Shown here one piece after another: positions 6,401 to 54,696 of a stretch of DNA of 64,000 nucleotides. How positions within the stretch are numbered: position 1 is the stretch's first letter; each line of letters opens with the position of its first letter. The stretch is taken from the NCBI GenBank assembly GCA_965153455.1, contig OZ234493.1, positions 14,374,213 to 14,438,212 of the forward strand, in the 5' to 3' direction. Origin of the DNA: Sphagnum compactum. Its lineage: Eukaryota. A program made the position numbers and the translations under genes. A model generated the notes under the pieces. The model was given only the letters and a program-made list of their open reading frames with translations. It searched no databases and had not been told where the DNA came from.

Positions 6401-7670
6401 CCCACCATGCACAAAAACTTTGTTACAAGAGAGGCCTCTGGCAAGCATCTTCACACGGTGAAGGAGAAACATGGCGTGAGGAGTGCCATTACATGGTCCT
6501 GATGAATTGCAAAGCAAACACTGAAAAACAAACATGGGATCAGTCACCTGGTGACACCTCAAAATGGGTCAGAGTGCCAGGTTCAGCTGCTATAGCCTTA
6601 TCTAAGTTTGCATGTAGATTGGAGAAGAGCTCCACTAGCATCTTATCTGAAATTGGATCTCCTGTTTTTCCTGCTGTTATCCTTTCACGAATACTTGTTA
6701 AATGAGGACTGCCATAATCACAACCACATTTTTGCCTCAGTAAATCATCAACACATGCATCACTTTCCACTATGGGTTGTTGAGAAGCACCTCCATCTCT
6801 GAGTTACAAATAGAAAAAACAGCAAGCAATGTGTGACATAGAATTCCAACTGTAGACTACCAATTGTTTCTTGTAAGTGGATTAGTTATTACATGCTGAA
6901 GGGCATTCACATCAAAAGGGGGATCACACTTTGGACTATTCATGTTCAGGGTTCAGAGAGGAAGGGAGCACACTTTGTCTCTCTAAGCTCGCGTGAGGAT
7001 ACCAACGCATGTATGTGTACCTTGTGTAAGTCCCTACTGACAATCCTGCAGATCGCAAGATGTTACTGATGAAAGCCACAGTTGAACCTTTTCCTTTTGT
7101 CCCAGCCACATGGACAACCTGCAGCAGCAACAACATGAAGAAAACAGAAGCAAAATTTTCATTAATTCAATGGTGGCAACACATCCGTGGTTTGATATCC
7201 TGTCCCCCAAAAGTCTCTTTCAGATTAGAAAAGCAGAAAGTGAGAGAGAGAGAGTTGGGGTGGGGGGGAATGAAGGCACATACTGAATAACATGAAAGTG
7301 GATTCCCCAGGTGCAAGAGAAGCCTGTGCATGCGTTGAAGATCAAAGCCTGCATCTGAGTCAGTACCTGCACCTTGTGGCACACCTTCTCTTTCATAATT
7401 CTTCAGTGAATCCAAAAACTGCAACAGTTGCGCAACCCCAACTCCATCACCACTACTGTCATGGTGGTGCTGAGGAGCTTTCTCCATCATGTCACCTTTC
7501 ACTTTCACATTATGAACCAAAGTCCCCAGTTCTCTTCGTCTGACACGATGAGGCAATAACAATGTAACCACCACAAGGGGATGACTGCTCACAGCAGCAG
7601 TAGCACAAGGACTAAAGCATGATGCCACCGCCCTCACCTCCCCTGCATTTGCAAAAGCAGCTACCATCAC
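3406..7670 (-). CDS. DHFS: Dihydrofolate synthetase / folylpolyglutamate synthase family (FolC, plant DHFS type); exons approx. 7670-7284, 7118-7021, 6708-6558, 6390-6328, 5894-5733, 5480-5271, 4967-4865, 4607-4477, 4248-4117, 3843-3406
   Basis: Motifs [28 protein letters not shown]-loop [16 protein letters not shown]...[41 protein letters not shown] and C-terminal [11 protein letters not shown] boundaries are frame-consistent. The N-terminal extension resembles a transit peptide. Confidence 0.92.
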
Positions 7671-10600
7671 CAGTCCAGGATGATGATGATGATGATGGGT
7701 CTGGGTGGTGGGATTCCAGAGCTCAGAGTTTGTTTCTCAGAGCAAATGCCAGTGAAAGGTACCATCTCTCTCATGATACACAAAACTCTCTCTCTACCTC
7801 AAAGAAGCTTCTTCAGAAAGCAACAATCCCCAAGAACTCTCAGACGAAAAAGAAAGGAAGGACTTACCAGAGAAAGCAAATATGGCTGAAGAGCCTCTTC
7901 TTCTCGCCTCTGTGTGACAAAACCCTAAAGGACTCATAAAAGGCATGCCAGATCTTCTTCTCCACAGCTTGGCATCAGTAACAGCTCCTGCAGACAGAAA
8001 CAGAGGCGGAGGAGTGCTAGCTGAAATCCAACGGCGGACGAGAAGAGAAACCCGGTAGGAAAGGCCCCGCAAGGAAGACATGATGAAAAGACTCTTGCGT
8101 CACTTCTTCTTCCTCTTCTTCTTCTGCTTCTTCACCAGTCCACAAAGCTCCACAAGTATCTCTGCCACCTGCAAAGGACGAAGAACATGTGTTCCCCGGA
8201 AGCTACTAAGAGTTTGCTTGACGGATAACTCTTTGTTTTCTTTCTCTCCATCTTTTTCAGCTCTCAGCGGAGCTCCCCGACACTACTGCTACAAATTCCT
8301 CCGCCAATTCCATGGAGATGGGTATGTTCAGATCTCTCTGCTATCCACCAAGAAGCAAGAGTGACACAAGAGCAGCTAGGCTAGCTAGGGCTTGCTCAGT
8401 CAGATTTCCTCCCGGGTTCGGAGACCTTCGCTAGGGTTTTTCAGTCTCCGCTCATTCGTGTGGGTTGTGCTGCAAATGCCATAAATTGACGTTAGGCGTC
8501 GAAGGCTTCTTCTGTAATTTCTCCCTTCTGTTTCTTCTTCTTCCTCGCTCTGCGATCGCGTGATCTACTGCGACCTGCATCTTCTTCTTCACCTCTTCGA
8601 TCCTTTGTTCTGTGCCGATTTAGTGTTTAGGGTTTGCATCGGCTGATTATTCCTTGTTCGTTCCTGTCTGTTGTTTCTTGTGGGACGGTTGAGGGATTCA
8701 GGGAAATGGGTCCTGGAGTTATGGCTTTTTCGATGGACTCAAATGCCCCTAAACATCGACCGCCGACGACTGGCTCTTGGTGGCAACACTCCCTGATCGA
8801 TCAAAGCATCCATAGCACCATCGGGAAGCAAGCATCGACAACCCATCTGAAAGCACCACCTGAGAGCTTCGACAATGCCATCTGAAAACATCCTTTGAAA
8901 GCAGCATCTATGCCACAGATGTTGTTTCTGCGTAAGATGTCGGCGTCGTCTGAGTTCTCAGGTACAAAAGAAAAGGGCACCGACATGGGTAGAAGAAGAA
9001 GGCATGGATTTCTAACGTCTCCACTTTCCATTCTACGCTTGTGAAACATGTGATACACACACATAGATAGATAGATGCTTGAGGGATAGAGCAGGTCTTT
9101 TGAGGAAATATTGCTCCATATGATAGCGAGGAGTCTCTATCTATGTCAAGTGCGTGAGCATGGAGGATGCATGGAAAATGTTCCACAAAAGAAGATGGTC
9201 ACCGGGATGTATGTGATCACGGAGACTGCATGCTCTGGCAAGGAGCATGTTCAACAGGGTTGAGGAAAAGATTGAAAGAAACCTATTGATTTCAACATCC
9301 GCATTGGCAGAAAGAAAGCAGTGGAGAAAGCCAGCCACCTCTCTGGATGCTGTGATTCTTGGGACATGTGTGGTGGTGGAGCCAGAAAATGCAGAAGAAG
9401 TACAAGAATGGATGGGGGCTAGATCAGAGCAGACTCTTCTTTGGCCACTTTTATGGGGATCCCTAGATGTGTGCAAGGGTTTTTGAAGAATAGTGGATGT
9501 GCTGGTGATGAGATGATCGAATCTGGTTGCAGCGGGCAGTCTCCAAGCCTCCTCCATGCTCCCGCATTTATCATATGTGGTTACTTGGGTTCTTATGGAT
9601 TAGGTTAAGGATTTGTTATGCAGCTTGCAACTCCATGTGAAACTTTTGTGTTCACAGTGAAGAGATGCTGCAAGAAAGGTTTGTATATATGTAACAGTCC
9701 ATTGTTGCTTCTGTTCTGTTGTAGTCATGCAGCTCTTGAGTATGCAGACCTGCATGGCCATGGGCTTAGACTACATACAGTGTTTCTGACTATGGAGGGA
9801 GCACTATTGCCTGCATGATTGATTTGCTTGACTTGCTGCACTTTTTGTGTGCAGGAGATGGACATCTGGTGATGGCAATGTATTGTCAACCAGATGCAGT
9901 TGCAGATGTCCCACACGTCCAGGTTAGCTTCATTGGCAGGCTTTCAACTTGAAAATTGGTGAGGAGTCTGGCCTTGTATGTTTTCAGTTTGTTGGAGCTT
10001 TTTCTTTCTGGTGACAACCATACACAAAACTAAACCATCCAACTAATTTTTGAGGATATGGTGTGCTGTGAACATCTTGTGTCGAATATGTTCATTGTTG
10101 TGCATATTGCCTTCTTTGCCCACCAGAGTTTGAAAGGATAATCAGAGCATTTTGTTTCATCTGCATGTTTTGCAGGTTTGGGAACGCAAATGAGAGAGCT
10201 GTGTTATGCATGAGGGTGAAGGAAAGTCATGTGAGAGGGTGACAAGGGTGTTGAGGGTTTAAGAAGGTACTCATGGGTGGATGCAATGTGCTAAAATGCA
10301 AAGCTTAGAGCATGACAACTTTGAAGAAATGGCATAATAGTGAAAGAGAAAAAATGGTGCAACACAGCCTCAAGCTTCAGGCATATGGAAAAACTCCCCT
10401 GCATTATGCCATTGTGTAAATGGTTGTATATGCCCCGCCCATTCCTTGGTTTTTTCCTTGTTGTGTTTCAAGAGCATACACAATCAATTTTCTTGATTTT
10501 TTTCATGGCTTGTGATTCAAAGGGTGTATGCAGTCAATGTAAGCAAAGAGTTTTTGAAAGTTTACCTTGTTATTCTTCATCTTCATTGTCTAAAAGTAGA

Positions 10601-11336
10601 TGGGTTTGGAAAAATTAAGAGATGTGCTATCAGGATGTAGAGAGTGCTAGGACTCTTGATTACCCCTCCCCCTGCAGGACAGTTGTCTTAAGGTTTGAAT
10701 TTCTCTTTGTATAGTTCAATTGTACAAACAAAGACATGCAAGTCCTTGATATCAAGTGCCTATTTTGTGCCCAATTTTTGCTGATTTGTGATTTTTTTTG
10801 TTTGGAGAAAAGTTGAGAAACATACATCTCGAGTGTGAAATTGTTTTTTTCAGCCAAAAATTGGGTACTTTTTGAAAATTTTGAATTTATAAATCTCTTT
10901 TTTTTTTTCTCCTTTTAAAACACTGTTCCCATGATCCATCCCTACCATAATACAACAATCAATTCCAACATTCTATCATTACTTTGTTGAAAAGGCAGCA
11001 TAACTGTTCATCTACCTCTCTAACTTCAATAACGTCTATAAACATGTCTTTTGCAAAAGGCATGCCTCATGGGTATTGAAACCATGGGCAAAGGAGTATA
11101 TGAGCAACATCCAATAACAACAAAACGCTAAAGAAACGACCACCCAAGTTGGAAAAACAAGTAGTCAATTGACAATGATTTGATCTGTGTAATTATTGAA
11201 AGAACAATGATAGATCATATTGAATCCATGAAGGGAGACATTCAGTTTTTGAATACAATGTGTTCATCATAACACAATATTTTATGTGCAAATAAATATG
11301 AAGACTAAGTGCTAACTATTGAACTAAAGAGTGGGA

Positions 11337-14300
11337 ATGATGGCAATGCTTCATGGGGAATCCGAGCTATCCAAAAAGGTTCTCACCGTGTTGCCATCTG
11401 ATCCATATGAGCAATTAGAAGTGGCAAGACAAATCACAAACTTGGCAGTGGCTAGCAAGATGTCAGAACTTGAATCCGGGACCATGAAGCTACAACAAAC
11501 ATTGGTGGAGAAGGAGCAAATGATTTCAACCTTACAAGAACATGTAGCTAACATTCAAACCACGTTACTTGAAACAAGTGCAAAGTTGACACTTGCACTC
11601 AATGAACAGGTGAGATCATTTTGCATTTCTTAATTTCTCTTACATCCAATGTTTTGTTTTCATTGCTATCTAATTTTTTTGAATAAGCATTTGAATGTCA
11701 TAATTTCTTGTTGTTTAAATATTATACATGCAATGGTTTAAGCCATGTATTCCTTGTAATCTACATGATTCAATATTGAAACCATCAATTATATGTTAAG
11801 ATTGGACCATGATGTTGAACCATGATCTAGATTATGTAAGCTATAATGTATCCAATGAAGTTGCTTTAACATCTAATTTATTGAAAATTTCAGGGAAAGC
11901 TCAATTTGGAAAAGACTGAGATGGCAAGGCAAATGAAGAAACTAACACGAGATGTGGCAAAAGTATGTCGATAGTGTAGTAAAAAAGATGTTTGGAATCG
12001 TTTTAATAATGATATAATGATGTGTGATCAATTTCATGTGCACAATAAGGAATTTAAGAAATGTTCATTTCCAATGGACTTATCTATTTGCAATATGCAC
12101 ATGAAAGTGTTGATATCAACAACACATTTTTTTACTATGTTCAACTATCAATGAAACTCACATAAACTTCAAATTTGGAACAATGATAATTTGGAGCTTA
12201 CAACAAATGACCTAGAATCATTCATTATTCCATTTCACAAACTTTCAATTATTTTTTTGGGTTGATTTTGGTTTCAAACTTACATGACATTTGTGGAAAT
12301 CTTCATAGTTGGATGCATTCAAACGCGTACTTTTGAAAGTCGTTCAAGACAATGATCGGGATGGTACATGTGTTAGTATACCAACTACTTCAATATCTCC
12401 ATTGTTGTTCATAAAACAATGAGTTTGGCTTTCTAGTATTGTTCTAATATCTACTTGTGATGATATTGTTTTTATTTTTTTAATAATGATGTTTTTCAAT
12501 TTAAGCCAAAATCAACTTCCATACTTTAGAAAAATGAAAAACATCAACGAAATTAATGAAATAAGTTTATGTTTGACATGTAATTGAACAAGTGTAAGAA
12601 GGTATTGCGTTTTTTTCACAATGCCATTAAGACTTAATTCCACTACAAGAAACAACCAAAATTTGATCCTATATAGGCTACAACATAAGCTTTAACTAAT
12701 GGCAAAGATCACCTAACAATATTTTTTTGTAAATAATTGGTCCCCAACTCCTAAGGTAGAAAATTGGCTTATAATAAATTATCCATTATTAACTTTTGAT
12801 ATCTAAAAATAAAACAAATTTTTCAATAAAATTTGATTTAAAATAATTGTCGGTGATAACTAGTCTTCAAGAATCAAAGCTACAAATTCGGCATCTTTCC
12901 TATAAAATTGAGGTAGTTTGTTAGTTGTTGAGTTTTTTGAACTTGGATTTGGGTTTAGGGAGAGGATGCCAAATCTCCAAAATCTCCTTGTGGAGAAAAA
13001 ATTCTAAAGTCACCATGTGAACAAAAAACTCCAAAGTCACCATGTGAACAAAATACTCCAAAGTCACCATGTGAACAAAATACTCCAAGATCACCATGTG
13101 AACAAACTCCAAAATTACCATGTGAACAAAAAAATTCTAAACCACCATGTGAAAAGACACGTGAACCAACAACACAACCACCATTTTCATGTGAAAAAAA
13201 ATTGTCCACAAGTTCCCAAGGAAGCCCCAAACATAGCAAAAGAAGTAAGTTTGTTTTAATCTATGTTGCCTTGTGTAGGTCTTTGAAAACTCAAGTTCAT
13301 GTTATTTTTGTCATGGAAAATGATGATCACTTTTTGATGAATCAAATATATTTCTTGTTTTGGTTTGTAGTATTTTCAGCAATATTAAATAATAATAATG
13401 ATGTGATGACAATGTGATAATGTATTTGTAATGTCATATTGTGTATGAACATGAAACATGGATGATTTAGAAAAGTTTGAAAAAGAAAAAGAAACTAAAA
13501 TGTGATTGTAATTGTTGCTTTTCAATAAGAACATTAACTAAAACCAATTGTTGAGTACAATGTGTTGCATGTATAGAGAAAGGCCCCTTTTCATGCACTA
13601 CAGAGCTCCAAACCATAGAGGTTGTTGATGAAGTTAAATCGGTTGATAAACTTGATAGATCCAGTGGACCTGATGAAGGTAACAATCATTTTTTGCTTTA
13701 ATTTTCAAAGTACAAAAATTTGTGCTGGAAATTGCTACAAAGTCTTTGTGTCATGTTTTCAAATGTTTTTCATTAATTAAGTGTATTGCAATCAACATTT
13801 GTGAAATCACCCTTTTTGATAAGGCATTGATTTAGTCGAAATTATAACTTTGAAATTGTTATCGCATGATGGAAGAGGTTGTCAAATGCATTTTTCATAT
13901 TATGTTGTTGTCATTACATAAAATGTTGGTTGATTGATGGTGCCCAATTCATTCCGATGAGTACATGAATTTGCACCCAACATACATGATAAATACATTA
14001 TAAATTGGTACTAAAATTTAATGGCTTGGGAAATGGTGTAAGAACATTCGAATTGGTCCTTTGAGAATCAACAAAGTTGTTTTGATATTAATTAAGCTTT
14101 CAAAACCTTAAGGTTTGAAGAAAAATTCTAATTTTTTTTCTCATATATGACATTGAAAAAATAATTAACATTTAATTTAAAGAACACCAAATAATTATTT
14201 TGTGAAAAATGCTTGTGGCATTGACATATTGACTGCATGGATGGAAAAATCAAGTCACAAGGTGAAAACTAAGATAGTTTTAGGTTGACTAATTTGTTCA

Positions 14301-15412: not shown

Positions 15413-17102
15413 TAATTTGGTTGATGATAATTGAAATAAAACATTGATTCATTATTATGGTTGTTTATTGACATGAAATTTGAACTTTGCCAAATGTCAA
15501 ACCTGATGTTGCAAATTATATGTACCTATGTGTTTAAACTTCAACAATTTGTAATGGAAATTTAGAATTTCAATTAATTTTCTTTGAAAAAAATCCTTAT
15601 TTAAATCATCTATATGTAGGTATCAATATTTATGATGTCTTGAAGTTGTTGGCCCTAATTTTGTGGTGTCACATACTTAATAGGATTCAAAGAATACATT
15701 ATTTAAGCAATATCCATACTACCCAACAACGTTCTATGTATTTATAAATTGTATTTGGTCATTGGTGGTTTTATTTATCGGGGGTATACATTATAAACTA
15801 TCACTAAAATATGTAACTTTATATTTATTTATGGATTAAGAAATACAACAACCTTGGTTGGGTATTTGAGAAATTTATTATAATGATAATTAACTAATGC
15901 ATATTTGCATACCATGTAACACCTATAAAGTTGAAGTTACTCCCCATATTTTGGTTCATTTTCATTTTGTTAAATTTAATTGTTTTAAAAAAATTGTGAA
16001 CAACTTTGAATTTTCAAATTTTAAAGGAATGAAAAATAAATTTCAATTAACATGAACAATCACAAAAATTACAAAGGTAATACGATTTTACATATATTGA
16101 ATACATAACTTGTGAACAATTCAATCAAACATTTGTGGGTGTTAAATTATGAGTTAATGTAGGAGAATTTTGATTTCACAATTGTTGATCAATTATCATG
16201 AATCCACATTTTTTTTAAGTGTTCCAAAATTTTGTCACAATGTCACCTTTTTATATTTTTTGCCTAATCATTTTTTACCATGTAGAGACACAAAATGAAT
16301 GATAATGATGAATTTTAAAATTGTAATTGTCTAAAATATGGTATTCATAAAATATTTGACATTTTTTGATTCATTAATATTCATGGGGACCAAAATATAG
16401 GAAAAAAATTGCATTAAGGACTAGGTCATTTTCATCATAAATGGTACACCTCAAAGGATTTTCACCCTCATTAATTGTTAGAAATTTTAGCAATTTAAAA
16501 TATAAGAAAATCTTGGAAGCTTTTTTAAATTTAAACTTCATAAAAGTGTTCTATAATCTAAAATTTCCTTATAAATTTTTTTATAATGTAATTTTTATTG
16601 TGTAATTCATATTACATTTTAGCTTAATTTAATAAAAAAATACACTATGAACCATGAAGGTTTTTTCCTACATTGGAAGGTTGTACATACAAATGTTTTT
16701 CATAATAACCAACCTTTAGCCCTTGAACCTTTCTCAAATTTCATTTTTAGGAAATATTTCCATGAAATGTAAACCAACTTGCATGAAGGTACATTTGACA
16801 TTATGGTAAGCCAAAAAATAAGCCTTCTATGTTACTATTGTGACTAGTGATCATGCAACATGAAGACCCTTTCTAAACCATGAACTTGTCATAAAAGATG
16901 GATTGTACAAATCAAATTCTTAATACATTTGTTCCCTGAAATGATTTTTTATAGAATTAATATTCCTTGTCAAATGAAAAAAAAGGATATGCATATAAAA
17001 GTTTTAAACAAAAAAAAATTTATTCAAGTTCTCTTTTGACTCCTTTTGATTGCCAAGATTTTAATACTTCATTATAATCAAAATCCATATGTTGTGGAAC
17101 TA

Positions 17103-17277
17103 TGTTGTGAAGTGCAGTGTCGTGACGTTCGGTGTCGTAAGGGTGTAAATCCATAATAAACTCTATTGAATAGAAAGATTAAAACTAATCAAAGGTAAAA
17201 ACTAATCAACCAAAAAGATATGCACTCACATATATATACAATGCACAAGAGGAGGCTGAGATGAAATTCTCATGTAT
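17103..17277 (-). repeat. Terminal repeat block A (copy 2, 3' end of the element, 175 bp)
   Basis: Direct repeat of 17585-17759, about 15 mismatches in 175 bp by hand count, mostly transitions. Confidence 0.9.
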
Positions 17278-17582
17278 AATTAAATTGTAAAAATAAAATT
17301 AAAAAATGTAATGTATGTAAACGGTGGCCATGTAATAGCCGTGAGCATCTAAAAATCCAATCTGACTATGGAAGAAACTCTCCCTGACAAAGGAATTCTA
17401 AAAAAATTAATAAGAGAAGGGAAAAATTTGGCTTTTTATACAGCCTCAACAAGCTGAACAAGCCATAACCCTAAAACACCTAATAGCGCATATTAACCTA
17501 AGAACATACATTAACCCTAAAGGCATGATTGGCATGCCTGTAACTAGTCGTCATGTATGAGGCCATGCATATGGGCATGACA
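17278..17582 (-). repeat. Terminal repeat block B (copy 2, about 305 bp)
   Basis: Direct repeat of 25860-26173, e.g. shared gtatgtaaacggtggcc, atctgactatggaagaaactctccctgacaaaggaattct and gggcatgaca. Confidence 0.9.
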
Positions 17583-17584
17583 AT

Positions 17585-17759
17585 TGTCGTGACGTGTAGT
17601 GTCGTGACGTTCGGTGTCATAAGGGTGTAAATCCATAGTAAACTCTACTGAACAAAAAGACTAAAATTAATCAAAGGTAAAAACTAATCAACCAAAAAGA
17701 GATGCACGCACATATATATACAATGCATTAGAGAAGGCTGAGATGAAATTCTCATGTAT
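17585..17759 (-). repeat. Terminal repeat block A (copy 1, internal)
   Basis: Matches 17103-17277. On the element strand it is preceded by a G-tract (C-run at 17760-17767) and ends ...CACGACA. Confidence 0.9.
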
Positions 17760-17808
17760 CCCCCCCCAGACCTGAACCGGGAAAAACATGGCATGGTCTG
17801 AGCAAAAA

Positions 17809-17965
17809 TCAAGGTGCTGCAGGAGAACATGATGAACAGTACCAAATGCCAACGGGAACTTGAGTGAGTTTCGGCTTGAGGCAGAATAGACGGTATTCAC
17901 CATTACAATTATCGCAAAGCAACATCTGATCAACATCGTCTGTTCTCTGACATACCTGACATGGA
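17809..17965 (-). pseudogene. PHD finger at the C-terminus of the retroelement Pol
   Basis: CQVCQRTDDVDQMLLCDNCNGEYRLFCLKPKLTQVPVGIWYCSSC fits C4-H-C3 with the conserved W. The His position is Arg in this copy. Confidence 0.88.
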
Positions 17966-18049
17966 TAATCAAATGGAGGAATCCAAGTCAACGTGATGAT
18001 GGTAGGATCCAAGTTCAATAAGTGGCAAGGCGCACAATTTTTGGAGTGA

Positions 18050-19050
18050 TCCCAAATTGTGCATCCGTCAGTTCTTTACAACTCCAACACACTTGAAGGC
18101 CCGATCGCCTTAATCCTCAAGATAGTGCAATCGAAAGAAGTGTCTAGAATATCATTAGGTTGCCACTAAAAATACACAAAATCACCAACATCAAATTGTT
18201 TCACCTTAGGTTTATAACTGCCACCTCGTGTGTGTGCATATAGTAAGGTGTTTCGATGTTGTGCAATGGACAAGTTCTCCATGGCCATGGGCATAACCCT
18301 CCTGAATAGAGCTGTCCTCTTTGGAATGACCCTAGCCCAAGTGGCTGGGGAGTCCAAATCCACAACCTAGTCCATTTGAGCAATAATGGAAGAGGGTGGA
18401 ATGGGATGTCTCCCAAAAAGTAGAAAGTAAGGAGAGAAATGAAACAAAGAGGCGTGTTTGGACATCCTATAACCCATGGCGATGTAAGGTAGGGCCAGGT
18501 CCCAATCCTCTTTGTTCCTAGTGAGGCAAATCTTTCGCAGTCCCTTCTTGCATGTCTGAATGATCCTTTCTACAAGGCCATCAGCGTGGGGATGATCCAT
18601 TGAAGTTCAGCAATGGTCAATGAGAGCATGATCAAGTAGGTATTGGAATTTTCCTCTGAATTATGATCCCTGATCAGTAATGCACTCAGCATAAGCCCCA
18701 AAACTACTTAGGACCTGTTGTAAGAAAGCCTGGCTGGTGCTATGTGATGACTTGTCCGGCAGTGCAACAAGCTTAATCATAATCATGATGTAGACATTAC
18801 CCCTAGAGGTCTATGGTAACTCTTCAGCTAAATCACATGACCAACGATAGAACATGCCCTAAATAGGGAGTGGAGAAAGTGTGAGTTGTCGAGAGGAAAA
18901 GGAAGTTCTCACTCTATCACATTATTCACACCTAGCAATGATGTCTCGGACTTGAACATACATACCTCTCCAATGGTAATGAGGAGTGAGAAGGCTATAA
19001 GTACGCTTAACTCCAAAGTGTCAAAGCTCTGAGTGTACCTTTTGAATAAG
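18050..19050 (-). pseudogene. Retroelement DDE integrase (disrupted)
   Basis: HHCC region (HSEL*HFGVKRTY...WRGMY...C..C), core ITDQGS*FRG and HPHADGLVERIIQTCK...WDLALPYIAMGYR...SPYFLLFGRHP, then C-terminal KQFDVGDFVY and a GP motif. Confidence 0.88.
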
Positions 19051-19399
19051 ACCAGGCCATTCATGTGGTGGAGGAATCACTCTGTCGCCTTGTGGTAAGC
19101 ATCGGACGAGGTGATTGTCCCTCCATGAGTAGCATTTCGACCGTTGTTGTATGCGATCTCGTTGACTTGATGTAACTTGGGGAAGGTATTCCCCATGCTG
19201 AAGAAACTTCAAAGTGTCCAAGTCCTCCCATATATCCACAATGGGATGTTCAACCAGGTTACATTACAGTAGTGCAAGATAACTAAATGCATAAGATACA
19301 TGTACTGCTGAAATCTAGTCGAAGTTTTGCCTGGCTTTCGATAAATCAGGTAGTGAAGGGTCTCCGCGACGTGGTATCTGCGTTCTGATGTGTAATACC

Positions 19400-20710
19400 A
19401 AGTCGATGAATAACCTTGAACTCATACTTTTGAAGTATAAGCGCCCAACGAGCTAACTTACCAGTAAGCTTGTCGTTGGTCATCAACCACTTGATAAGCT
19501 GGTGGTCGATATACAAAGTGAACTTGGTGCCATAAAGATAGGGCTTGAAATGTATGACGGCCCATATAACAACAAAACACTCCCCCTCGTAAGAAGAGTA
19601 GTTGCTTTCAGCCTTGTTGTTGCTTTAGAATGCATAGGCGATAACATATTCCTTGCCTTCCTCATCAAGTTGGCCAAGAATAACACTAATACCAAGAGCA
19701 TTCCAGTTAGTGTGTAGAATGAAGACCTTGTTAAAATCAGGTCTTCTCAGAATGGGGAACTCTAAAAGCTTTTCCTTGAGTGTGTTGAAAGCTTCCTGAG
19801 CCTCTTCATTCCATGTCCAAGCAACATCCTTCTTTAACAATGCATAGAGAGGATGAGCAATAGTACTGAAGTCTTGGACATAAATCCTATAGTATTTACA
19901 TAGTTTGATGAAGCTCCTCAAAATGTGAACATTAGTAGGAGTGGGCATCTCCAAAATGGCTACTACTTTGGCCCAATGAGCCATAATACCATTTGGCAAA
20001 ATTATGTGGCCAAGGTAGACTACTGAAGTGACAACAAACTCACACTTTTTAGGATGGATTTTCATATTGACCTCGTGGAGCCTCTTGAATAACTCCTCAA
20101 GATGAGCCAAGTGCTGTAGGAGTCCCTTGCTATGCACTAGGATGTCATCTATGTAGCATTTCAAGAAATCTGCCCCTTCAAGAACCTAGTCCATGACTTG
20201 CTAAAAGAAGACATGTGCATATTTTAATCCAAAAGGCATCACAAGCCATTCCCACAACTTGTTGCTTCCATGGAATGTCGTTTTCTTACAATCCTTTGCA
20301 ACGAGCAGAATCTGGTTGAAGCTTGCCTTAGATCCACAATTGTGAAGATGTTTGAGTCTCCAATGTTATCAAATAAATTTTCAAGGATGGGCATGGGGTA
20401 CTTGTCCTGAGGTGTAACCAGGTTCAAAGGCTTATAATCCCCGTACATCCTTTTCTCAGTCCATAATCGAGTTGAATCCTTCTTTGTTGGCATTATTGTA
20501 GCGGCTACAAAATCAGAAGTTGATGGCTGAATGAGACCAGCCTCATGGAGCTTTTTTCATCTTTCATCTACTAGTTCCCATTCATGCTTGTTCAACCTAT
20601 GCCTCTTCCGATAGATGGGTGTTTCATGTGTAAGGTCTATAGAGAACTGCATGGTCTTACACCTACCTAAGTCTTTCATTGAGAATGCGAACACATTCTC
20701 ATACTCAATT
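19400..20710 (-). pseudogene. Reverse transcriptase and RNase H (disrupted), Ty3/Gypsy type
   Basis: RMYGDYKPLNLVTPQDKYPMP, VMPFGLK, YIDDILVHS, KKCEF...YLGH, LLKKDVAWTW; RNase H FILHTNWNALGISVILGQ...VIAYA; KLARWALILQ. Confidence 0.92.
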
Positions 20711-21064
20711 AGCAAGTCTGTGACCTGGTCTCTCTCCTTTTTGGTGAGCTAGTTCCCCATAACGAAAGGGTAGTTGGAAACACATGGAATGGAGTTAGAA
20801 AGTGTGTTTGAAGAACCTGGTGTATTGAGTTCTCCATTATCCAATTACGCAGATTTGTAAAAGGTTGTAATTGTTTCTCTAGAAATTGATGTACCTCCAG
20901 GTGTATCAGACACAACTTGAGTCAAATTACATGGTACCTCCTCCCCCCCAACATTAAGAGTGAAGTCTTGAGTGTTGAAGATAGGCAAGTGTACTTGGTC
21001 GGGGTGCCATGTAGTTGCATCGCCAGAACTACAAGCGGATTGAATCAGTGCTGGTGTTGTGTAC

Positions 21065-22030
21065 ATTTGAAAGAGTACACAGGTTACCAACAACCATGTA
21101 AGGGAGTTCAAGTCCATGCCTCTCCCCAGTAGAGTGTTACGTTCCAATCTAGTCACCTTGGTGTGACTAGTAGTGCTAGTTTGGAACCCCATAGCCCTTT
21201 CTCTTTCTTCTGGGCTTGGTTCATCCCAAGTTGTTGAAACATGACGATATACCAGGCCTGGTCCATCTCCCTGAAAGGCGTGTGCTCCTAGGAAGGAGAC
21301 GAAGGTGGGCCAAACACCTCTTGGTTTTCCTATTGTGTTCGTAGGAAACCAAAGAGGTTTCTTTTGCCTTGTAACTAGTTGGCAGGAACTCTGATCATCC
21401 AATATGTGAAAAACATGCAGATTGGGGTCTTTGATGGTGTATTTCATAACCAACTGCAAAACTGAAAATGGTGCAAGGTTGGTCCACCAGTTGCGTAGTC
21501 GGTGCGCATAGGAATCACATTGTGCCGCATTGAATAGGAGCGGTTCTCCAAGGTAATGCTTGACCAACGTGTAGTGCTCCAGGACTTTCTCCCTCTGGTC
21601 AAGCTGAGAAGGGTGTTCTCAATTACATAACCAAGCGTAGGAGAAATGGGTTGAGCCCAGTTGATCATGTCCATGAAGAGACTGTATCTTGTGTCACTCA
21701 AGCCTTCTCCAAATCCAGCCACTGAAAATCCTTGACACTCCCAACCTGAAATGATGAGGTCCACGGGGCCAAGTAATTCCATATGCTTCTTTTGAATTAG
21801 TTGAATGTTAGAAGGCAAGAAAGTGAAACTGGCCTTCCATGTGATGGTTGCAAATTGTTGTGGAAATCTGGCTGTGAGCTCCATCATTGTCGATGTCGCC
21901 ACTTACCTTGCAATAGGATTAATGTCTACGTAGAAATACCTCCGAACCACCATCCCAGACTATAACAGGGCTTCAAGACCTGTACCAATACCACCAAAGA
22001 ACTCTAGTAATGTAATCCCCTCCTTAGGCG
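21065..22030 (-). pseudogene. DNMT3-like C5 cytosine DNA methyltransferase domain embedded in Pol between protease and RT
   Basis: Motif I LLEFFGGIGTG, II YFYVDINPIA, IV DLIISGWECQGFSVAG, VI YVIEN, VIII DSYAHRLRNWWTNL, IX PEERERAMGF, X RLERNTLLGRGM. Canonical I-X order; two in-frame stops and one frameshift. Confidence 0.88.
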
Positions 22031-22379
22031 ATGTCCAGGTGATCAGCTGATGAAGTACTAACTTAATCGGTTTGGCATGGCTTTCCATGTTCTCAAAAGT
22101 AGACAGAGTTTTGACCAAGGGCTTGTGGGCTGCTTTGAACCTCTGTAAAACTTCTAGTCCCTGTTGAATGTCCGTAGGAACCACCCTCGGGCTTTCAGTA
22201 GCTTGGGCATAAGCTGTCTCCTCTTCATGTCCCTTTATCCACTCGTGGCTAGTTTATTGGATGTAGGAAATGGTGTGTGCTTCCTTGAGCATACAATGGT
22301 GAGCCATAGGACTATGCTTTCCATGTAAATCAAGAGGTATGTATCCCAAGTGGTGACCATCAGTCTCCCAATCCACTTG

Positions 22380-22720
22380 GTAGTACGCATGCTCGAACCA
22401 GTTGTCAATTGTGAAACCTGGTGGAAACAGGGCCTCTTGCCCAATGAGCACATCATAATTGGTGGCATTGGTGATTAAACATCTGACATGTAGGCAAAGC
22501 TCCTGATCTGTACCTTCATTGAAGTTAAGTGTAATCAAATCCGAGCTCTCCCGAAGTACCTCCTCTACATTCCCACTAGTAATGCGAATTTGCCACATAG
22601 ATTTTCGTAGTTTGGAGTCAAGCATGCCCATCTTCTTGGCGAATTCAACTCCAAGAATCACTAGTTGGGCACATGTATCAAGAAGTACCACTCTGAATGT
22701 ATGTCCTCCCACCTGGATTG
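22380..22720 (-). pseudogene. Retroelement aspartic protease
   Basis: IQVGGHTFRVVLLDTCAQLVILG (D-T-G-A-like site) and downstream YDVLIGQEAL, within ORF 22254-23180. Confidence 0.8.
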
Positions 22721-23894
22721 CTGACTTAGTATTGTTGACAATGGCAACCCTAGTGACGATGGAAGTTCTCTCACTAGGCTCCACCTTCGGAAATGAGCGA
22801 GAGACTTTGTGGAGAGAATGGCTATCTACAACGCCTTTGCTGAGTAACAAATCCATAAATGAGGTGTTCTTAGTTCCCTTTTGATATGTGAATGTATAAT
22901 CAAAGGTAGGAGAGCCCACTAATTTAGCCATGTTAAAACTAGTGACCAGATTACGAACGCCATTTGCAACATGTGAGCCAATCGAATGTCTCTCCAAGGT
23001 GTTGGATGGGACCCTTGTAACATGTGGATCAGGGATTGGCAGAGGACCTGATGTAGTGTTCAGGGTATCTTTTAGTACTACAATTATGTCCCTGGAGCTT
23101 AGCTTCAAATCTTGAAAACTAAACAACGGTGTACTCACAAGTTTTTGTGCCACTTCACGTATTTGAAGTTGGCACTCCATAAACTGATTAGTGGAAAATT
23201 GTGTGTTTTCCTGATGTACATGTATTCTTGGGGCACGAGAATTTGATACCTTAGCAGCTTATGGTGTAGTAATATCCTCCCCCCTCGCCAAAAGGTGCGT
23301 TCTTCTTGCGTGTTAAGAGGACGAAAAGATTATGGCATGACTGCTCGAGCTCCTCTAGCCTTGGTAATAGGACTTGAACCAAATGCGAGTCCAATAGTCT
23401 GAATTACCTACCTAGTGGCAGAAACTCTGGGTGCCACATTAGCTTTTGTGCCAGAAGTAAGAAGGGCAAAAAGAAGTGGCAAATTTTAGTGTGAGACTAA
23501 AATTGTGTGCACGGAAAAGAACATACTCCCCAACCATGGCATCATGTGAGAGGCCATAGAATGACCTAGAAGGTCCCTCTTGTGATCCTGAACCCCATAC
23601 AGGTTGGGCATGACTAGCTGGTTGGGAAGACTTGCTTTTTATATTAGCAAGTTGGGCCTTTAATGATTCGAGTTCATTTTGCAAAGTGTAAGCTTGAGCG
23701 ACATGGGCTTGTAGCACCTCCCTCTTGTCAGCATTTTGCTCTTTCTTCTTAGCATTCTTACTAGAATTACCCTTGGTGGGGAAAGCCTGAGTGGAAGGCT
23801 GAAGTGCCTTGGTTTTTGGTTGAGGGGCAGTGGAAGATGCTAATAGATTTTGCAGTGGTAATTGGAGTTATTTCCGTTCTGGGAACTTGGCAAA

Positions 23895-24869
23895 ACAAAC
23901 AACTTCCTGATGTTTTTCTTTCTCACAATAATCACAAAAGAGATCTTCGGAAGGAATGTTGCATTCAATAGCTTTGTGGGCAGGATTGCCACAATAGTTG
24001 CAAGAAGGTAGGATGGGTGCAACTGAGTGCATCGCTTTAGCCCTTGAAGAAGAATGTGATGATCTGGTTGTCGCAGCTAGTGGAGGCTAAGGCTTTGAAC
24101 ATGATGGAGGCCTCATAATACTGGCTTCATAGTGTGCATGAGCTAGTTCCAGCTTTTCAGAAATGTTGTACACATCCAACAAAGTGTACGAGTCTTTAAA
24201 TTCTGCAAAAACTCGTTGCAAAACCTACGCATGGACTGTCGAAGTACCTTTCAACGAACGAAGATATTGATGGGCAGCTTCTAGGTCTGTGATGCTCTAA
24301 GTATCCTCTTTGAACTTGAGAAGCCTCCTATAGACCATCTTGAGGGTTTCATCTTTCTGCTAAGAGAAGGTGGCGAGCTGCAAATTTTTTTCAGAATTCT
24401 TAACCGGAAATTTCAACTCAAGAAATCGAAAGAATTCCCCCACTAGATTAGCAAAAGCTGGTGCATCGATGGTGGGAGGAATGTTTATGGTAGCAGCAAT
24501 GAGTTGTTGAGGAAAAAAATTTACTAAATTAGGTACTAAATTTAGATTATTGGGCACAGTCCCATGATGTGCAATGGCAACCTGTAGTGCAGCTTGAGAG
24601 GTGGTGGCGATGGCTGTGGCATAAGCTAGATTGGGGATCTGAGTGACGCCCAAAATCCTCGGAGAATGTTGCTCATAAACATCTAATGCCTCATAGTGCA
24701 CATAATGGGCCAGTTGTTTGAATGCAAATGCCTCGGTGTAATCAGCGCCATACTTGAGCTCCAATTCACAAACCATAGTTGAGAAAGTTGCTTTGAATTC
24801 CCTCAAAGAAATGGTACCTGGCCTTCCGTTGAACTTCTCAATTCTCCCAAAGGAACTACTGACCTCCAT
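23895..24869 (-). pseudogene. Gag-like region with two CCHC zinc knuckles
   Basis: IEKFNGRPGTISLREFK Gag-like N-terminus; CNYCGNPAHKAIEC and CDYCEKEKHQEVVC (both CX2CX4HX4C) at about 24003-23895. Confidence 0.8.
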
Positions 24870-25859
24870 GGTGTATATGGGGTGTAGAGGTAACGGCTTG
24901 CAACGGAATATACGGTGATGGTATGAAAGCAAGTGCGGTAGCAGGTGTACCCCACTGATTAACCCCTCCAAATGGACTTTAATGTACCGTTGATGTAGTG
25001 TAACCTGAACTTGAATTCTTGGTAAGAGTTGTATTGAATGACGGTGGCGTTGTAGATGCTTTGATGGTACTATCGTGAAGATCATGAGTTCAAAGAAATC
25101 GGCTCAAAGGATGATACCTTGGCTCTGGCTGAGTGGTAGTGTTCTCATCATTCGAGGACATGGTGTTATCCCATGCCCCAAAATTTTGTAGCAATACAGA
25201 ACACTAGTTACAAAGTTCTAACACAACGTACGGTTTGAAGAATACGGTGCGTCGACAGGGATGAATAGCGATGGACAGACGTCTGTGGCCAGACGTCGGT
25301 GGACGAAAGGGGCTAAACGAACGAAACCAGACGGACGGACGTCGATTGCAACGGACGACGACGTAATAGATCGCCAATGAGCTCTCCAGCGATGGCGGGT
25401 GACGACGCGATGGACGCCGCGCTACAGATTGCCTGAGAGCTTTACAACAATGGCATGCAAAATTATTATTATTATATTCTTCTTGCTTGACACTGCACTT
25501 GGTTCTAACAACTTCAAGAGTCTTTAAGGCTTCCTCCACCTCCTCCTGTGTCTCTGCGCAAAAAAGAGTGTTATTTTCTCTTCTCGTGCTGTAGCACGCA
25601 CACACGCACGTGCGCTCAACACTTCTCGAGCGCCTCTTCGGAATAGCAGGAGTTTGTCCAATCTTCACTTCAAAAGCATTCAGGGGTGGCAACCTCATAC
25701 ATTGAGACACAACAATTGAAAGCTCGAGAGTAGTAACAACAACAACAACACCAGCAATAACAGCAACAACAACACTAGCAACAAAAGAAACCCAAGAAAC
25801 TCAAAGCCAAGAAAAATTTGTCGTTTTCAACATTAAGCAACAAAGAGCAGTTTTTCTAG

Positions 25860-26173
25860 AATTAAATTGAAAAGAAGGAAAAAAACATAGTGTATGTAAA
25901 CGGTGGCCGTGTAATAATCGCTGTGAGCATGTAGAAATTGAATCTGACTATGGAAGAAACTCTCCCTGACAAAGGAATTCTAGAAAACCTAACAAGAGAA
26001 GGGAAAAGCTTGGCCTTTTATATAGTCGTCAACAAGCTAAAATCCTAAATAAGCCATAACCCTAAAGCACATAATAATACACAATAACCTAAGAACATAC
26101 ATTAACCCTAAAGGCATGATTGGCATGCCCGTAATCGGCCATCATGTATGAGGCCATGTGTACGGGCATGACA
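25860..26173 (-). repeat. Terminal repeat block B (copy 1, 5' end of the element) with a putative TATA box
   Basis: Matches 17278-17582. Begins TG on the element strand and contains TATATAAAA on the minus strand near 26016-26024. Confidence 0.9.
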
Positions 26174-26989
26174 ACTAATTACAATCATAATAAGCCAATG
26201 TTGAAAGTTGATGTTATAATTTTGTTAAATGACATCTCAAAAATGTTTAATCCAACAAATCAAAACATTCAAAAGTTAATTGGACATGTGGATGATTATT
26301 GGGAAGGATTGGTACCACCTCATTTCAAGATTAGATATCATAATCATGTTAAACATGTTGTGGTTCACATGATTGGAAAAGATTGGTGGCACTTAATCAA
26401 GCTTATGCAAAATCATGTTAGAACATTGATAATAAATGATTAAAAGCAAGGGATTTAATTAGTTATAATTCATCATGCTCACCAAATATATAATTTTGAG
26501 TTTTGAAAATTATTATTCTATGATTGTATGGTTTTACCAATGTTATACATTATAATTAAATTAATATTGACTCAAAACTTGCAAATTTGGTTGATGATGT
26601 TATTTTGTAACTAAGATAATAACATCCATTTTTACAAAATATTATTTTGTGATCATTGTAATCAGTTAAGATACTATTTTGCAAATGATGCAACTAGCAA
26701 TTATATATATTTTTTAATTGTCTAAAATGTAATTAAACATGGATATAACATTTACAAATTGTAATTGATGTGCAATTACCATAATAATATTCATTGATTT
26801 TTTACATATTGGGATGCCATCTCATAATTATTCATGAAATCAAAATTAGCAAACCCTTCAAACACATTTACAATTGTTCATTGTAATATGCATTACACAA
26901 ATCTATTTCATCAATAATAACAAATAATTTAAGATTGAAACATTTGAATCATTGACATTATAGAAATCCAATGGGTTTCACATTGCTCA

Positions 26990-31174: not shown

Positions 31175-32230
31175 TGAAGCAATGCAAGATTCTTGAGCAT
31201 ATTGAATGGGATGCAATAGGAACATCTGCCCATAAAAAATTTGAAGCAAATGCAAAGGGTTCTTGAGCAGATTGAAGAGCATCCAATATGAAGATCTGGC
31301 CATAGAGAAATTGAAACAATAATGCAGAATTCTTGAGCAGATTGAAGTTAATGCAATATGGAAGATCTGGCCATAGAGAAATTGAAACAAGAATGCAGGA
31401 TTCTTGAGCAAGATTGAAGTTCATGCAATATGGAAGATCTGGCCATAGAGAAATTGAAACAATAATGCAGGATTCTTGAGCAGATTGAAGAGGATGCAAT
31501 ATGAAGACCTGGCCATAGAGAATTGAAGCAATTGAAACAACAATGCCAGATTCTTGAGCAGATTGAAGAGGATGCAATATGAAGATCTGGCCATAGAGAA
31601 ATCGAAACAATCCAGGATTCTTGAACAGATTGAAGTTAATGCAATTTGGAAGATCTGGCAATAGAGAAATTGAAACAATAATGCAGGATTCTTGAGCAGA
31701 TTAAAGGGAATGCAATAAGAAGATCTGCCGAGAGACAATTGAACCAATTGAACCAAGAGGATGCAATATGAAGATCTGGCCATAGAGAAATTGAAACAAT
31801 CCAGGATTCTTGAACAGATTGAAGTTAATGCAATTTGGAAGATCTGGCAATAGAGAAAGTGAAACAATAATGCAGGATTCTTGAGCAGATTGAAGGGAAT
31901 GCAATAAGAAGATCTGCCGAGAGACAATTGAACCAATTGAACGAATAACTGATCTAGAAATTGAAACAATAATGCAGGATTCTTGAGCAGATTGAAAGGG
32001 ATGCAATAGGAAGATCTGCCCATAGAGAATTGAAGCAGATGCAGAATTGTTGAGCAGATTGAAGGGCATGCAGCAGAAAGATGTACCCATAGAGAAATGG
32101 AAACAAATGCAGGATTCTTGAGCCAGAAAGAAAAAGATGGTGCAATAGGAAGATCTGCCGTTAGTGAAATGCAAACAATAATGCAAGATTCTTGAGCAGA
32201 TTGAAGGGGATGATTCTTGAGCAGATTCTA
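31175..32230. repeat. Tandem satellite of about 70 bp (about 15 units) with higher-order duplication
   Basis: Unit approx. gattcttgagcagattgaag(aggat/ttaat)gcaatatg(g)aagatctggccatagagaaattgaaacaataatgca, with a period of 70-71 at 31261/31331/31402. Confidence 0.92.
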
Positions 32231-53091: not shown

Positions 53092-54696
53092 TTAAAATTT
53101 GTATACATCTGGAATCTTCACTGGGTACTGAGAAATACAATGGGCCCAGGGTGATTTCTGTGAGGGCTCTATGGTGCGTAGGGCCTGCCAAACAGCACTA
53201 TTGCATTTAAATCCACTACCAAAAGCAATTTGCCAGATTCTATTGCCTTTCCGCATCCTTCCTTTTGCCTCAGTATACGCCAACTCATACCAAATAGAGG
53301 ATGAGGATGTATTCCCAAATCTGTGAAGAGTCATACGTGAAGCTTCACAGTGCTCTGGCATAAGCTGCAGGTTCTTCTCAAGCTCATCAATTACAGCTCG
53401 TCCTCCTGCATGAATGCAGAAATGTTCAAACGCAAGTTTGAAATCAGGGATGTAAGGTTTCACCTTGAAGTTGAAAACCTTGCGAGCAACAAGGACTGCA
53501 AAAAACAAGATCTGTTCAGAGAGAGGGAGTACAAGAGGGCCCAGAGTAGTAATGTTTGTCTTCAGGGCATCCCCTGCAATTGCCATGAGTTCTTTAGAGA
53601 GTGACACTCCCATATATCCTGTCTCATCTTGCTCCTGATAAACACATTGGTAGCACTTGTCATCAGCTCCCTTATGAGTCCTCACAACATGGTTGAGTTT
53701 GTACTTGGATCTTGCCCTGTCTCTTCTCTTGTTGGAGAGGAGAATCGCAGCTCCACCTAGTCGGAACAGGCAGTTTGGAATGAGCATGGACTTGCGATTC
53801 CCAAAGTACCAGTTCTGTGTGATGTTTTCTGTGCTCACAACTATGGCATATGTACCACCATGAACTTGCAAAATGTCCTGCGCAAGATCAATTGAGATCA
53901 CACCGGCGCTACATCCCATTCCTCCCAAATTGAAAGTCCGGATGTTACCCCGCATTTTGTACTTGTTAACAATCATGGCTGACAGAGATGGCGTTGGATT
54001 GAAGAGAGAACAATTCACAACAAGCACACCAATGTCCTTTGGCTTCACCTTTGTTTTCTCAAACAGCTCATCCAAGCAACCAAACATAACAGCTTCTGCC
54101 TCTTCCCGTGCTAGCTTCATGCTTGGGGATGGTGGAATGGTGTGCACAGCAGGAGGAAGATAGGTATCTTCTCCCAGCCCAGATCTCTCCAAGATCTTTT
54201 GCTGGAACTCGATGCTCTTCTCATCAAACAACCCAGACATCTTTGTGTGCTCTAAGAAATAATTCATGGAAACCTTTAATGGCTCTTGTGCCAAGTAACA
54301 TGCGTAATCAACGAGGTAGATGGGTCTCGGCCTCGACATCACATACACTGTCAAGAAGAAGACGAGAAGCACCGAACAGGTGACCAAGCTGAGAAGATCA
54401 AATTTCAGATTCTCCCATAGCTGCCACATATCATCGGGTTTCAGCCGACCCACCTCCAATAGGACTCCGAGCAGCAGGGGGATGAAGAGCAAAGTCACAA
54501 GATGGGTGATGAGATAATGGTAGCCAAGTTTCACATATTTCAAGTTCACTGATTGCAAGAAATCAGGAAGACGTCTCCGTGTGCTGATGTGAACTGAAAA
54601 GATGCGCCCCGAAGAAGAAGAAGAAGAACTCATGGAGCTTGCTCTTTCAGGAGCGGGAGAAGGATTCATACCTCCTCCTTCTCCACCCTTTGCCAT
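53092..54696 (-). CDS. KCS: 3-ketoacyl-CoA synthase (FAE1/KCS family, very-long-chain fatty acid elongase condensing enzyme), intronless, 534 aa from MAKGG
   Basis: [20 protein letters not shown], two N-terminal TM helices, [10 protein letters not shown] (catalytic Cys), [24 protein letters not shown] and [16 protein letters not shown]. Confidence 0.97.

Follow-up and report, generated by a model that had tools for sequence, protein, structure and literature searches.

The described retroelement closest to the one reported here is KnitGypsy-Dnmt3 of the charophyte Klebsormidium nitens, a Gypsy-type element with a DNMT3-like domain (de Mendoza et al. 2018, PMC5890265). The same paper treats SymbioDIRS-Dnmt3 of the dinoflagellate Symbiodinium, for which de novo methylation of CG has been shown, as for no other retroelement DNMT3 so far as the accessible text goes (PMC5890265). 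A sequence-only reading of a stretch of the moss Sphagnum compactum had pointed correctly to both precedents and proposed a comparable fusion there. We have analyzed that stretch, hereafter the window, which comprises 64,000 nucleotides of contig OZ234493.1 (assembly GCA_965153455.1, forward-strand positions 14,374,213 to 14,438,212); coordinates below are window positions unless a sibling locus is named. On its minus strand, positions 17103..26173 hold an inserted retroelement of 9071 bp with TG...CA termini. We consider it likely that a member of a high-copy family of bryophyte retroelements was inserted here long ago and has since been inactivated, and that in this family a DNMT3-like methyltransferase lies within a single gag-pol frame.

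Like this family, KnitGypsy-Dnmt3 has an intronless, non-permuted DNMT3-like domain inside a Gypsy-type Pol open reading frame (ORF), and its repeats are described as "the same as that of a DIRS retrotransposon" despite Gypsy-like domains, which matches the B...A-B-A repeat layout found here (PMC5890265). It differs in its host, our elements being from land plants (mosses of the genus Sphagnum and a leafy liverwort), and the moss copies are numerous and dead. The likeness is one of description only: the accessible parts of the paper make no mention of a PHD finger, the slot within Pol, a Glu-Cys motif or target duplications (PMC5890265), and no protein named Klebsormidium was among the matches listed in our searches (including the best 120 of 153 and the best 120 of 315). 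SymbioDIRS-Dnmt3 also has a DNMT3-like domain in a retroelement polyprotein, with repeats given as "A - coding region - B - A ..." (PMC5890265), but it uses a tyrosine recombinase, whereas the moss family has an H2C2 zinc finger and rve integrase and 4-bp target duplications. The EpiLTRs of Cymbomonas and Euglena are long terminal repeat (LTR) elements that likewise combine a cytosine methyltransferase with a chromatin reader. Unlike ours, their DNMT is described as sister to DNMT4, stands at the 3' end of pol and is accompanied by an adenine methyltransferase; the authors call it distinct from "streptophytes (Gypsy-DNMT3)" (bioRxiv 10.64898/2026.05.21.726589). DNMT3 embedded in retrotransposons is also mentioned "as previously reported" in the accessible text of PMC12344493.

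The literature searched held no report of Gypsy-DNMT3 elements in Sphagnum, bryophytes or land plants, in agreement with the sequence-only reading, although subscription papers, Repbase, Dfam, REXdb and supplements may list some. Term look-ups in the accessible text of PMC6453930, PMC6317226, PMC9033089, PMC11982613 and PMC9998398 were negative, and a separate search for a PHD-bearing Gypsy lineage likewise gave no report. Going by the accessible sources, the Gypsy-DNMT3 kind is already in print for a charophyte, and we add land-plant members. How new the PHD finger, the Glu-Cys motif, the two slots within Pol and the pairing of target-site duplications with split repeats are depends on the make-up of the K. 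nitens element.

The methyltransferase domain and its place in Pol

The element has the Ty3/Gypsy-type order gag, protease, C5-methyltransferase, reverse transcriptase (RT), RNase H, integrase and PHD finger on the minus strand. When intact relatives are aligned to the window, gag-pol reads from 24869 to 17812, split by frame into four segments and interrupted by 31 in-frame stops and 3 frameshifts, so that the copy is full-length but dead; nothing in it is functional. Two of these stops (21960-21962 and 21903-21905) and one frameshift fall in the methyltransferase domain, which spans 21030..22037 on the minus strand by alignment to an unbroken sibling domain. A further stop (22254-22256) stands between it and the protease. 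Gag, protease and DNMT share frame -3 from 24869 to 21612, and the frame changes at about 21606-21614, directly after motif VI.

Six C5-methyltransferase motifs can be read from the translation, all on the minus strand and in linear order: I, FFGGIGTG (21978-22001); IV, GWECQGFS (21723-21746); VI, VIEN (21615-21626); VIII, AHRLRNWWTNL (21475-21507); IX, ERERAMGF (21184-21207); and X, RNTLLGRG (21118-21141), with coordinates counted by hand along the sequence ruler. The sequence-only reading had placed this set between protease and RT, in the protease frame and parted from it by single stops, and we find every motif and all three stops where it put them. Its statements that the domain has no introns and lacks the permuted order of DRM hold as well, as does the resemblance it saw to animal DNMT3: motifs VIII to X are close to those of DNMT3A, and DNMT3s rank first by phmmer, profile and Foldseek.

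The motif IV-VI piece of the window copy matches the Pfam family PF00145 at E=5e-9 and 36.5 bits, above the curated cut-off of 22, and siblings score 28-51 bits; the C-terminal piece alone has no Pfam or PDB sequence match. For phmmer and fold searches the query was the unbroken sibling domain L001:6569-7588 (340 aa) rather than the broken window copy. Its 29 best distinct PDB sequences by phmmer are all DNMT3A, DNMT3C or DNMT3B (best DNMT3A, 4.9e-9), followed by tobacco DRM, M.HhaI and DRM2. A family profile built from 16 members (alignment A1) gives the order DNMT3A (3.2e-22), DNMT3B (1.7e-18), tobacco DRM (9e-15), DRM2 (8e-10), M.HhaI (2e-8) and DNMT2 (2e-6), with no DNMT1, CMT or MET1 chain in PDB at E<=0.01. 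The AlphaFold model of the sibling domain (pLDDT 90.8, pTM 0.90) has a DNMT3-type fold, and its top Foldseek matches are all DNMT3A/B/C, at E of about 1e-18, TM 0.70/0.83 and ~21% identity. Ranked against solved structures by sequence, profile and predicted fold, the domain is DNMT3-like and non-permuted, and appears to have a complete DNMT3-type catalytic fold.

In animal DNMT3A and DNMT3B the catalytic domain is preceded on its N-terminal side by reader domains, PWWP and/or ADD. No such reader was found beside the domain of the element, where Pfam shows only a protease upstream; the PHD finger of the polyprotein lies ~1000 residues downstream, past the integrase. The domain shares its linear motif order with DNMT3A/3B/3C and with plant DNMT3 (PpDNMT3b; Yaari et al. 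2019, PMC6453930), and the animal DNMT3s are its best matches. It differs from DNMT3A in its ~21% identity, in having Glu-Cys-Gln-Gly-Phe-Ser where DNMT3A has SPCNDLS, in the absence of PWWP and ADD, and in its place inside a retroelement polyprotein. Plant DRM2 is a relative within the DNMT3 superfamily, and DRM is the second-best group in the PDB searches, but DRM is circularly permuted and aligns only over motifs I-VI, whereas the domain here is not permuted.

Membership in the polyprotein is best judged from siblings. A word-seeded protein search, with the C-terminal half as query, yielded 11 proteins out of 388 candidates. Two cluster-mates, P0004 (1214 aa) and P0017 (1315 aa), are unbroken gag-protease-DNMT ORFs, P0003 (574 aa) runs unbroken from the end of the protease through the DNMT into the start of RT, and P0001 (820 aa) is an unbroken DNMT-RT-RNase H. 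A scan of metagenome contigs gave at least 599 pattern matches, and at least 485 stretches encode a relative. Eighty loci of 76-87% identity, selected by the DNMT itself, were kept for study, and the domain stands in the same slot and frame in all 80. The best of them, L001, is in one frame over 4814-10828 with four internal stops; when it is read through (X at stops), Pfam recovers the series protease, DNMT, RT, RNase H, H2C2, rve and PHD. Because hundreds of siblings share the slot and some unbroken ORFs cross its borders, the methyltransferase must have been carried by the replicating ancestors of the family. As judged from these sequences, it is part of a Gypsy-type polyprotein and not a neighbouring host gene, which is what the sequence-only reading had concluded from the frame it shares with the protease; a one-off nested insertion, which would have undone that conclusion, is excluded by the hundreds of siblings.

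At E<=1e-5, 315 short proteins were found, and the named land-plant relatives come from three species of Sphagnum, S. magellanicum and S. compactum among them, and from the liverwort Calypogeia fissa. The C. fissa protein, P0314, is encoded on a 66.6-Mb contig and aligns to the moss-type protease-DNMT of L001 without gaps over 488 residues at 66% identity. Moss and liverwort lineages split very early in land-plant history, and 66% between Sphagnum and Calypogeia is high for lineages so old; horizontal transfer between bog neighbours and slow evolution are both options.

Two database entries show how such copies are filed. P0005 is the annotated S. magellanicum gene model CY35_15G039600, a chimera in which the protease, two stretches of DNMT, the end of the integrase and the PHD finger from a decayed copy are joined. 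P0006, a 455-aa "DNA cytosine methyltransferase", is filed under a Candidatus Obscuribacterales metagenome-assembled genome. It lies on a 2.4-kb contig and falls into one 90% cluster with a 1359-aa protease-DNMT polyprotein. We rejected a bacterial origin on account of the short contig and this clustering, and P0006 is probably a piece of a eukaryotic retroelement that ended up in a bacterial genome bin.

Motif IV and the wider green-lineage clade

An exhaustive HMMER search placed the family among many more relatives: 2413 representative proteins at E<=1e-3 and 253 at E<=1e-30, many of them 1000-3400 aa long. Named chlorophyte relatives include the "pol" of Scenedesmus sp. PABB004, Haematococcus lacustris, Chlamydomonas eustigma and a Chrzof1 entry, which we take to be Chromochloris. 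Among 405 stored proteins, 393 contain the domain; 183 have the order RT-RNase H-DNMT-integrase-PHD, 40 have protease-DNMT-RT and 170 are DNMT-only fragments. We built a FastTree tree of 191 domains de-duplicated at 70%, which is unrooted, has no outgroup and bears local support values. In it, the protease-DNMT-RT type (15 labelled and 9 unlabelled rows) forms one side of a branch with support 99, and a single change of architecture suffices on the DNMT tree. The bryophyte family falls within this branch, on a long stem. By these domain orders and this tree, the family sits within a large green-lineage clade of PHD-bearing Gypsy elements carrying this DNMT, whose larger, partly chlorophyte branch has it between RNase H and integrase instead. 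Some of the algal relatives (P0206, P0221, P0225, P0255, P0100 and P0074) have a G-patch (PF01585) in the same polyprotein, and P0263 combines a chromodomain (PF00385) with the PHD finger (PF00628).

Canonical C5-methyltransferases have Pro-Cys in motif IV. The codon of the catalytic Cys in the window copy (21735..21737, minus strand) is preceded by one for Glu rather than Pro. Of 190 non-redundant domains in the clade, 112 have Glu-Cys and 62 keep Pro-Cys; Glu-Cys is also found in 44 of 64 uninterrupted polyproteins of at least 1800 aa. Most of the 58 de-duplicated moss-family copies have it, as does the Calypogeia copy (GWECQGFS). Since it is common in the moss copies, in Calypogeia, in the wider clade and in uninterrupted polyproteins, Glu-Cys is a trait of the clade and not a product of decay.

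Other catalytic positions are conserved more strictly. Alignment A1 shows no variation at the Cys of motif IV, the Glu of motif VI and an Arg of motif VIII, and across the 190 domains the Glu-Asn (EN) is found in 166 and the Arg-x-Arg (RxR) in 148. The catalytic Cys, motif VI Glu-Asn, motif VIII Arg-x-Arg and S-adenosylmethionine (AdoMet) loop are conserved among relatives that are only 35-45% identical.

Other domains, repeats and the insertion

The remaining coding regions of the element, all on the minus strand, are decayed to different degrees. A gag-like region (23442..24869) aligns to the N-terminal part of P0004 from its Met, and has no Pfam family match in the window copy. The aspartic protease region is a 334-codon open stretch (22257..23258), whose matches to PF13975 (E=4.4e-4) and to PF13650 (E=7e-3) do not reach the curated cut-offs of these families; siblings reach 24-26 bits. 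The RT (19990..20556), aligned to that of P0040, has a frameshift near 20320-20329, and the piece 19628-20185 matches PF00078 at 7.9e-13. RNase H (19349..19810) matches PF17917 at 2.4e-20 and PF17919 at 2.4e-14. The integrase, with H2C2 zinc finger and DDE core, is heavily decayed and only approximately placed at 18570..19074 (81% alignment to P0040 residues 1486-2004); the region has 11 in-frame stops in the window copy, and the sibling integrase matches PF17921 (5.8e-14) and PF00665 (7.4e-12). The C-terminal PHD finger (17812..18075) matches PF00628 at 5e-10. The nearest solved relatives of a sibling finger are those of WSTF, KMT2D, KDM5, ATXR5, BAZ2 and CHD4, and many PHD fingers of these types are readers of unmodified H3 tails. 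A chromatin-reader module fused to the integrase's C-terminal end is also found in chromoviruses, but there the reader is a chromodomain, which is thought to steer integration, and here it is a PHD finger.

The repeats do not form a pair of equal LTRs bounding the element. At the 5' end stands terminal repeat B1 (25857..26173, minus strand), which is 82.9% identical over 321 columns to repeat B2 (17275..17583, minus strand), with ungapped blocks at 86-87%. The leader and ORF follow, and then a polypurine-like G8 tract (17760..17767, minus strand) directly 5' of the internal repeat A' (17585..17759, minus strand). B2 comes next, and the 3' terminal repeat A (17103..17277, minus strand), which ends in ...CA, closes the element; A' and A are 91.4% identical over 175 nt. 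The layout on the minus strand is thus B1, leader and ORF, G8A tract, A', two bases, B2 and A, or B...A-B-A. The same layout was found in five of the 80 loci, those with both ends (L001, L019, L024, L076 and L078), and the A-B-A triple of the 3' end in 17 of 80. No A precedes the 5' B, either in the window or in any locus holding the 5' end. The G-rich tract before A' is kept at all 21 listed A' starts after the ORF, the window included. No TGG-type primer site was seen by eye directly after B1, no systematic search for a primer-binding site having been made. The sequence-only reading had called the element a Gypsy retrotransposon. This stands for the Pol order of protease, RT, RNase H and integrase with a DDE integrase, and falls short for the termini, where split direct repeats replace a plain LTR pair.

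The insertion is flanked by the target-site duplication TAGT (26174..26177 on the 5' side and 17099..17102 on the 3' side, both given on the minus strand), and both junctions are crossed in sequencing run X1 by contigs with 0 differences. All four copies whose two ends could be located have perfect 4-bp target duplications: TAGT in the window, GGTC in L001, CCAA in L024 and TGAC in L078. DIRS-like retroelements have a tyrosine recombinase instead of a DDE integrase and are not known to make a target duplication. Our family has rve and H2C2 domains and target duplications, and these show that integration is of the DDE type despite the split repeats: the integrase inserted the unit as TG...CA DNA with a 4-bp target duplication.

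Formally, an AB-internal-AB element that is opened at the A|B junction and circularly permuted gives B...A-B-A. At the A'|B2 junction the window has CA-AT-TG, and siblings have CA-(GC/AC/GT)-TG. We considered whether the inner dinucleotide is made anew in each cycle and dropped the idea: GC, AC, GT and AT are simple transitions of one palindrome (CAGCTG), so inheritance and decay suffice for the variants.

Other arrangements of the repeats also occur. Contigs in runs X1, X7, X12 and X20 join window position 17275 to 25861, that is, repeat B directly to repeat A, and imply that solo B-A units, the equivalents of solo LTRs, exist elsewhere in these genomes. Inverted A/B repeat fragments lie beside or within sibling copies (L021 and L038 at ~5431-5591; L031 and L042 at ~6060-6527 and 11344-11811), a sign that members of the family may have inserted within one another or head to head.

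Of the internal bins, only one stretch of the 5' leader (25362..25698, minus strand) has a word depth close to single-copy in runs X1, X7 and X12, and this stretch is covered by an X1 contig with 0 differences; depth over the rest of the element is in the thousands, although read-depth figures in these runs are not copy numbers. The stretch is a copy-specific insertion or leader variant. The window holds no further copy, tblastn with seven domain pieces having matched only the element itself. Elsewhere in it, an uninterrupted, intronless 614-codon ORF (53092-54936, minus strand) matches PF08392 (3e-142), PF08541 and PF02797. By these matches, it is a plant gene of the 3-ketoacyl-CoA synthase type (FAE1/type III polyketide synthase-like domains), which fits a plant nuclear context. 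A tandem array at 31180-31943, with units of ~70 nt and 189 nt that are 60-98% alike, adjoins AT-rich DNA; ORFs through it have no Pfam match.

Decay, constraint and possible function

Our analysis shows that Pol, as it was translated, included a DNMT3-type catalytic domain with its Cys, Glu-Asn and Arg-x-Arg as well as a C-terminal PHD finger. We would suggest, tentatively, that in active elements the domain is a working de novo cytosine-5 methyltransferase that marks the element's own cDNA or the neighbourhood of integration. The predicted methyltransferase, either released from Pol or acting within it, would methylate new cDNA or the surroundings of the insertion. The PHD finger may steer the complex to chromatin with unmodified histone H3 tails. 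New copies could then arrive already marked like resident silent DNA. Self-methylation of cDNA or of the insertion site is a speculation already printed (PMC5890265).

Several points weigh against the reading given here. A full-length intact ORF is absent from all 80 loci that were retrieved, and the longest ORF measures 847 aa. Once copies with less than 80% cover and near-duplicates at >=99% were left out, which took the DNMT set from 81 to 58, at least one stop remained in the DNMT of 57 of the 58 copies. Pairwise NG86 dN/dS is 0.41 for the DNMT and 0.36-0.47 for protease, RT, RNase H, integrase and PHD finger, but two shifted frames of the DNMT gave 0.40 and 0.71, and after this control we set aside the value of ~0.4 as a sign of constraint within the moss family. 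Differences between copies are mainly transitions (transition/transversion ratio about 6-7) and nearly equal at the three codon positions; the third-position excess of transversions is only 1.44-fold in the DNMT, similar to RT (1.22). Such transition-driven, near-equal change looks like long neutral decay, and we infer that the decaying DNA was methylated. Motif IV departs from the canonical Pro-Cys, and the taxon range of the relatives rests on few named records. Finally, in the accessible literature no catalytic activity has been shown for any Gypsy-type DNMT3: the domain of KnitGypsy-Dnmt3 gave no methylation in yeast, a result that its authors call inconclusive, human DNMT3B having failed there too (PMC5890265). 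Constraint on the domain has only two supports, its retention in every copy and the catalytic residues kept across relatives that are 35-45% identical, many of them uninterrupted.

These observations bear first on an alternative that we regard as unlikely but worth weighing, namely that the domain is retained in the polyprotein but does not in fact act as a DNA cytosine methyltransferase. It might serve as a non-catalytic module that binds DNA or chromatin, like DNMT3L, a recruiter or titrator of host factors, or an enzyme with another substrate, such as the RNA of the element. The Glu before the catalytic Cys (112 of 190 domains, 44 of 64 long uninterrupted polyproteins) speaks for this, as does the yeast result, and the variant with RNA as substrate was raised by the 2018 authors for LINE-borne DNMTs (PMC5890265). 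Yet one would not expect Cys, Glu-Asn, Arg-x-Arg and the AdoMet loop to persist at such divergence in a degenerate binding module. The fold indicated by AlphaFold and Foldseek is that of a complete DNMT3-type catalytic domain, and the SymbioDIRS-Dnmt3 domains do methylate CG (PMC5890265).

A second alternative, very improbable in our judgment, is that some copies of the family were domesticated for the host and that the copy in the window, now decayed, is paralogous to a host gene rather than to a parasite. Host gene models do exist on such copies, CY35_15G039600 of S. magellanicum among them, but that model is the chimera of protease, DNMT pieces, integrase tail and PHD described above. One moss metatranscriptome has family-like contigs at 90-95% identity, but the library may contain DNA, and for this reason we claim no transcription. 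The copies examined decay near-neutrally, and the best 120 of 315 matches include no intact stand-alone bryophyte DNMT of the clade. The idea that a host DNMT3 gene or fragment adjoins, or was nested by chance into, this one copy draws on the window alone, where only stops part the domain from the protease, and can practically be dismissed given the shared slot and frame in 80 of 80 loci (selected by DNMT), the unbroken ORFs over both borders, the same architecture in a liverwort and the lack of introns.

Returning to the element as a carrier of its own DNMT3-type domain, a bolder view may be taken, although we hold it as doubtful and a shade less probable than the enzymatic role proposed above. 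The bryophyte copies could be relics of an undescribed, Viridiplantae-wide Ty3/Gypsy lineage that combines a PHD reader with a Glu-Cys DNMT3-type writer, the writer having moved once between slots of Pol. Its DNA would be circularly permuted and integrated by a DDE integrase at the palindromic CA-GC-TG junction, perhaps from a two-LTR circle or a concatemer, and horizontal transfer between Sphagnum and Calypogeia might add to this history. Such a route through circularly permuted DNA is described for neither Gypsy nor DIRS elements, and that an integrase acts on the palindromic junction, in cDNA that is circular or concatemeric, is no more than a conjecture. In either case, split repeats together with an integrase and target duplications pose a separate puzzle on the replication of such elements.

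The family matters in several respects. In the open-access literature, the Gypsy-type case consisted of one charophyte; peat mosses, with hundreds of copies, and a liverwort are now added, along with a much larger set of intact relatives in green algae. Natural Glu-Cys and Pro-Cys versions of motif IV are thus available for the missing enzymology. In genome annotation, such copies give rise to spurious "DNA methyltransferase" gene models. Hosts fight transposons chiefly by cytosine methylation, and a transposon with a de novo methyltransferase of its own would therefore reverse the arms race. Whether a retroelement is helped or tamed by methylating itself is a question for which these elements may offer a workable system.

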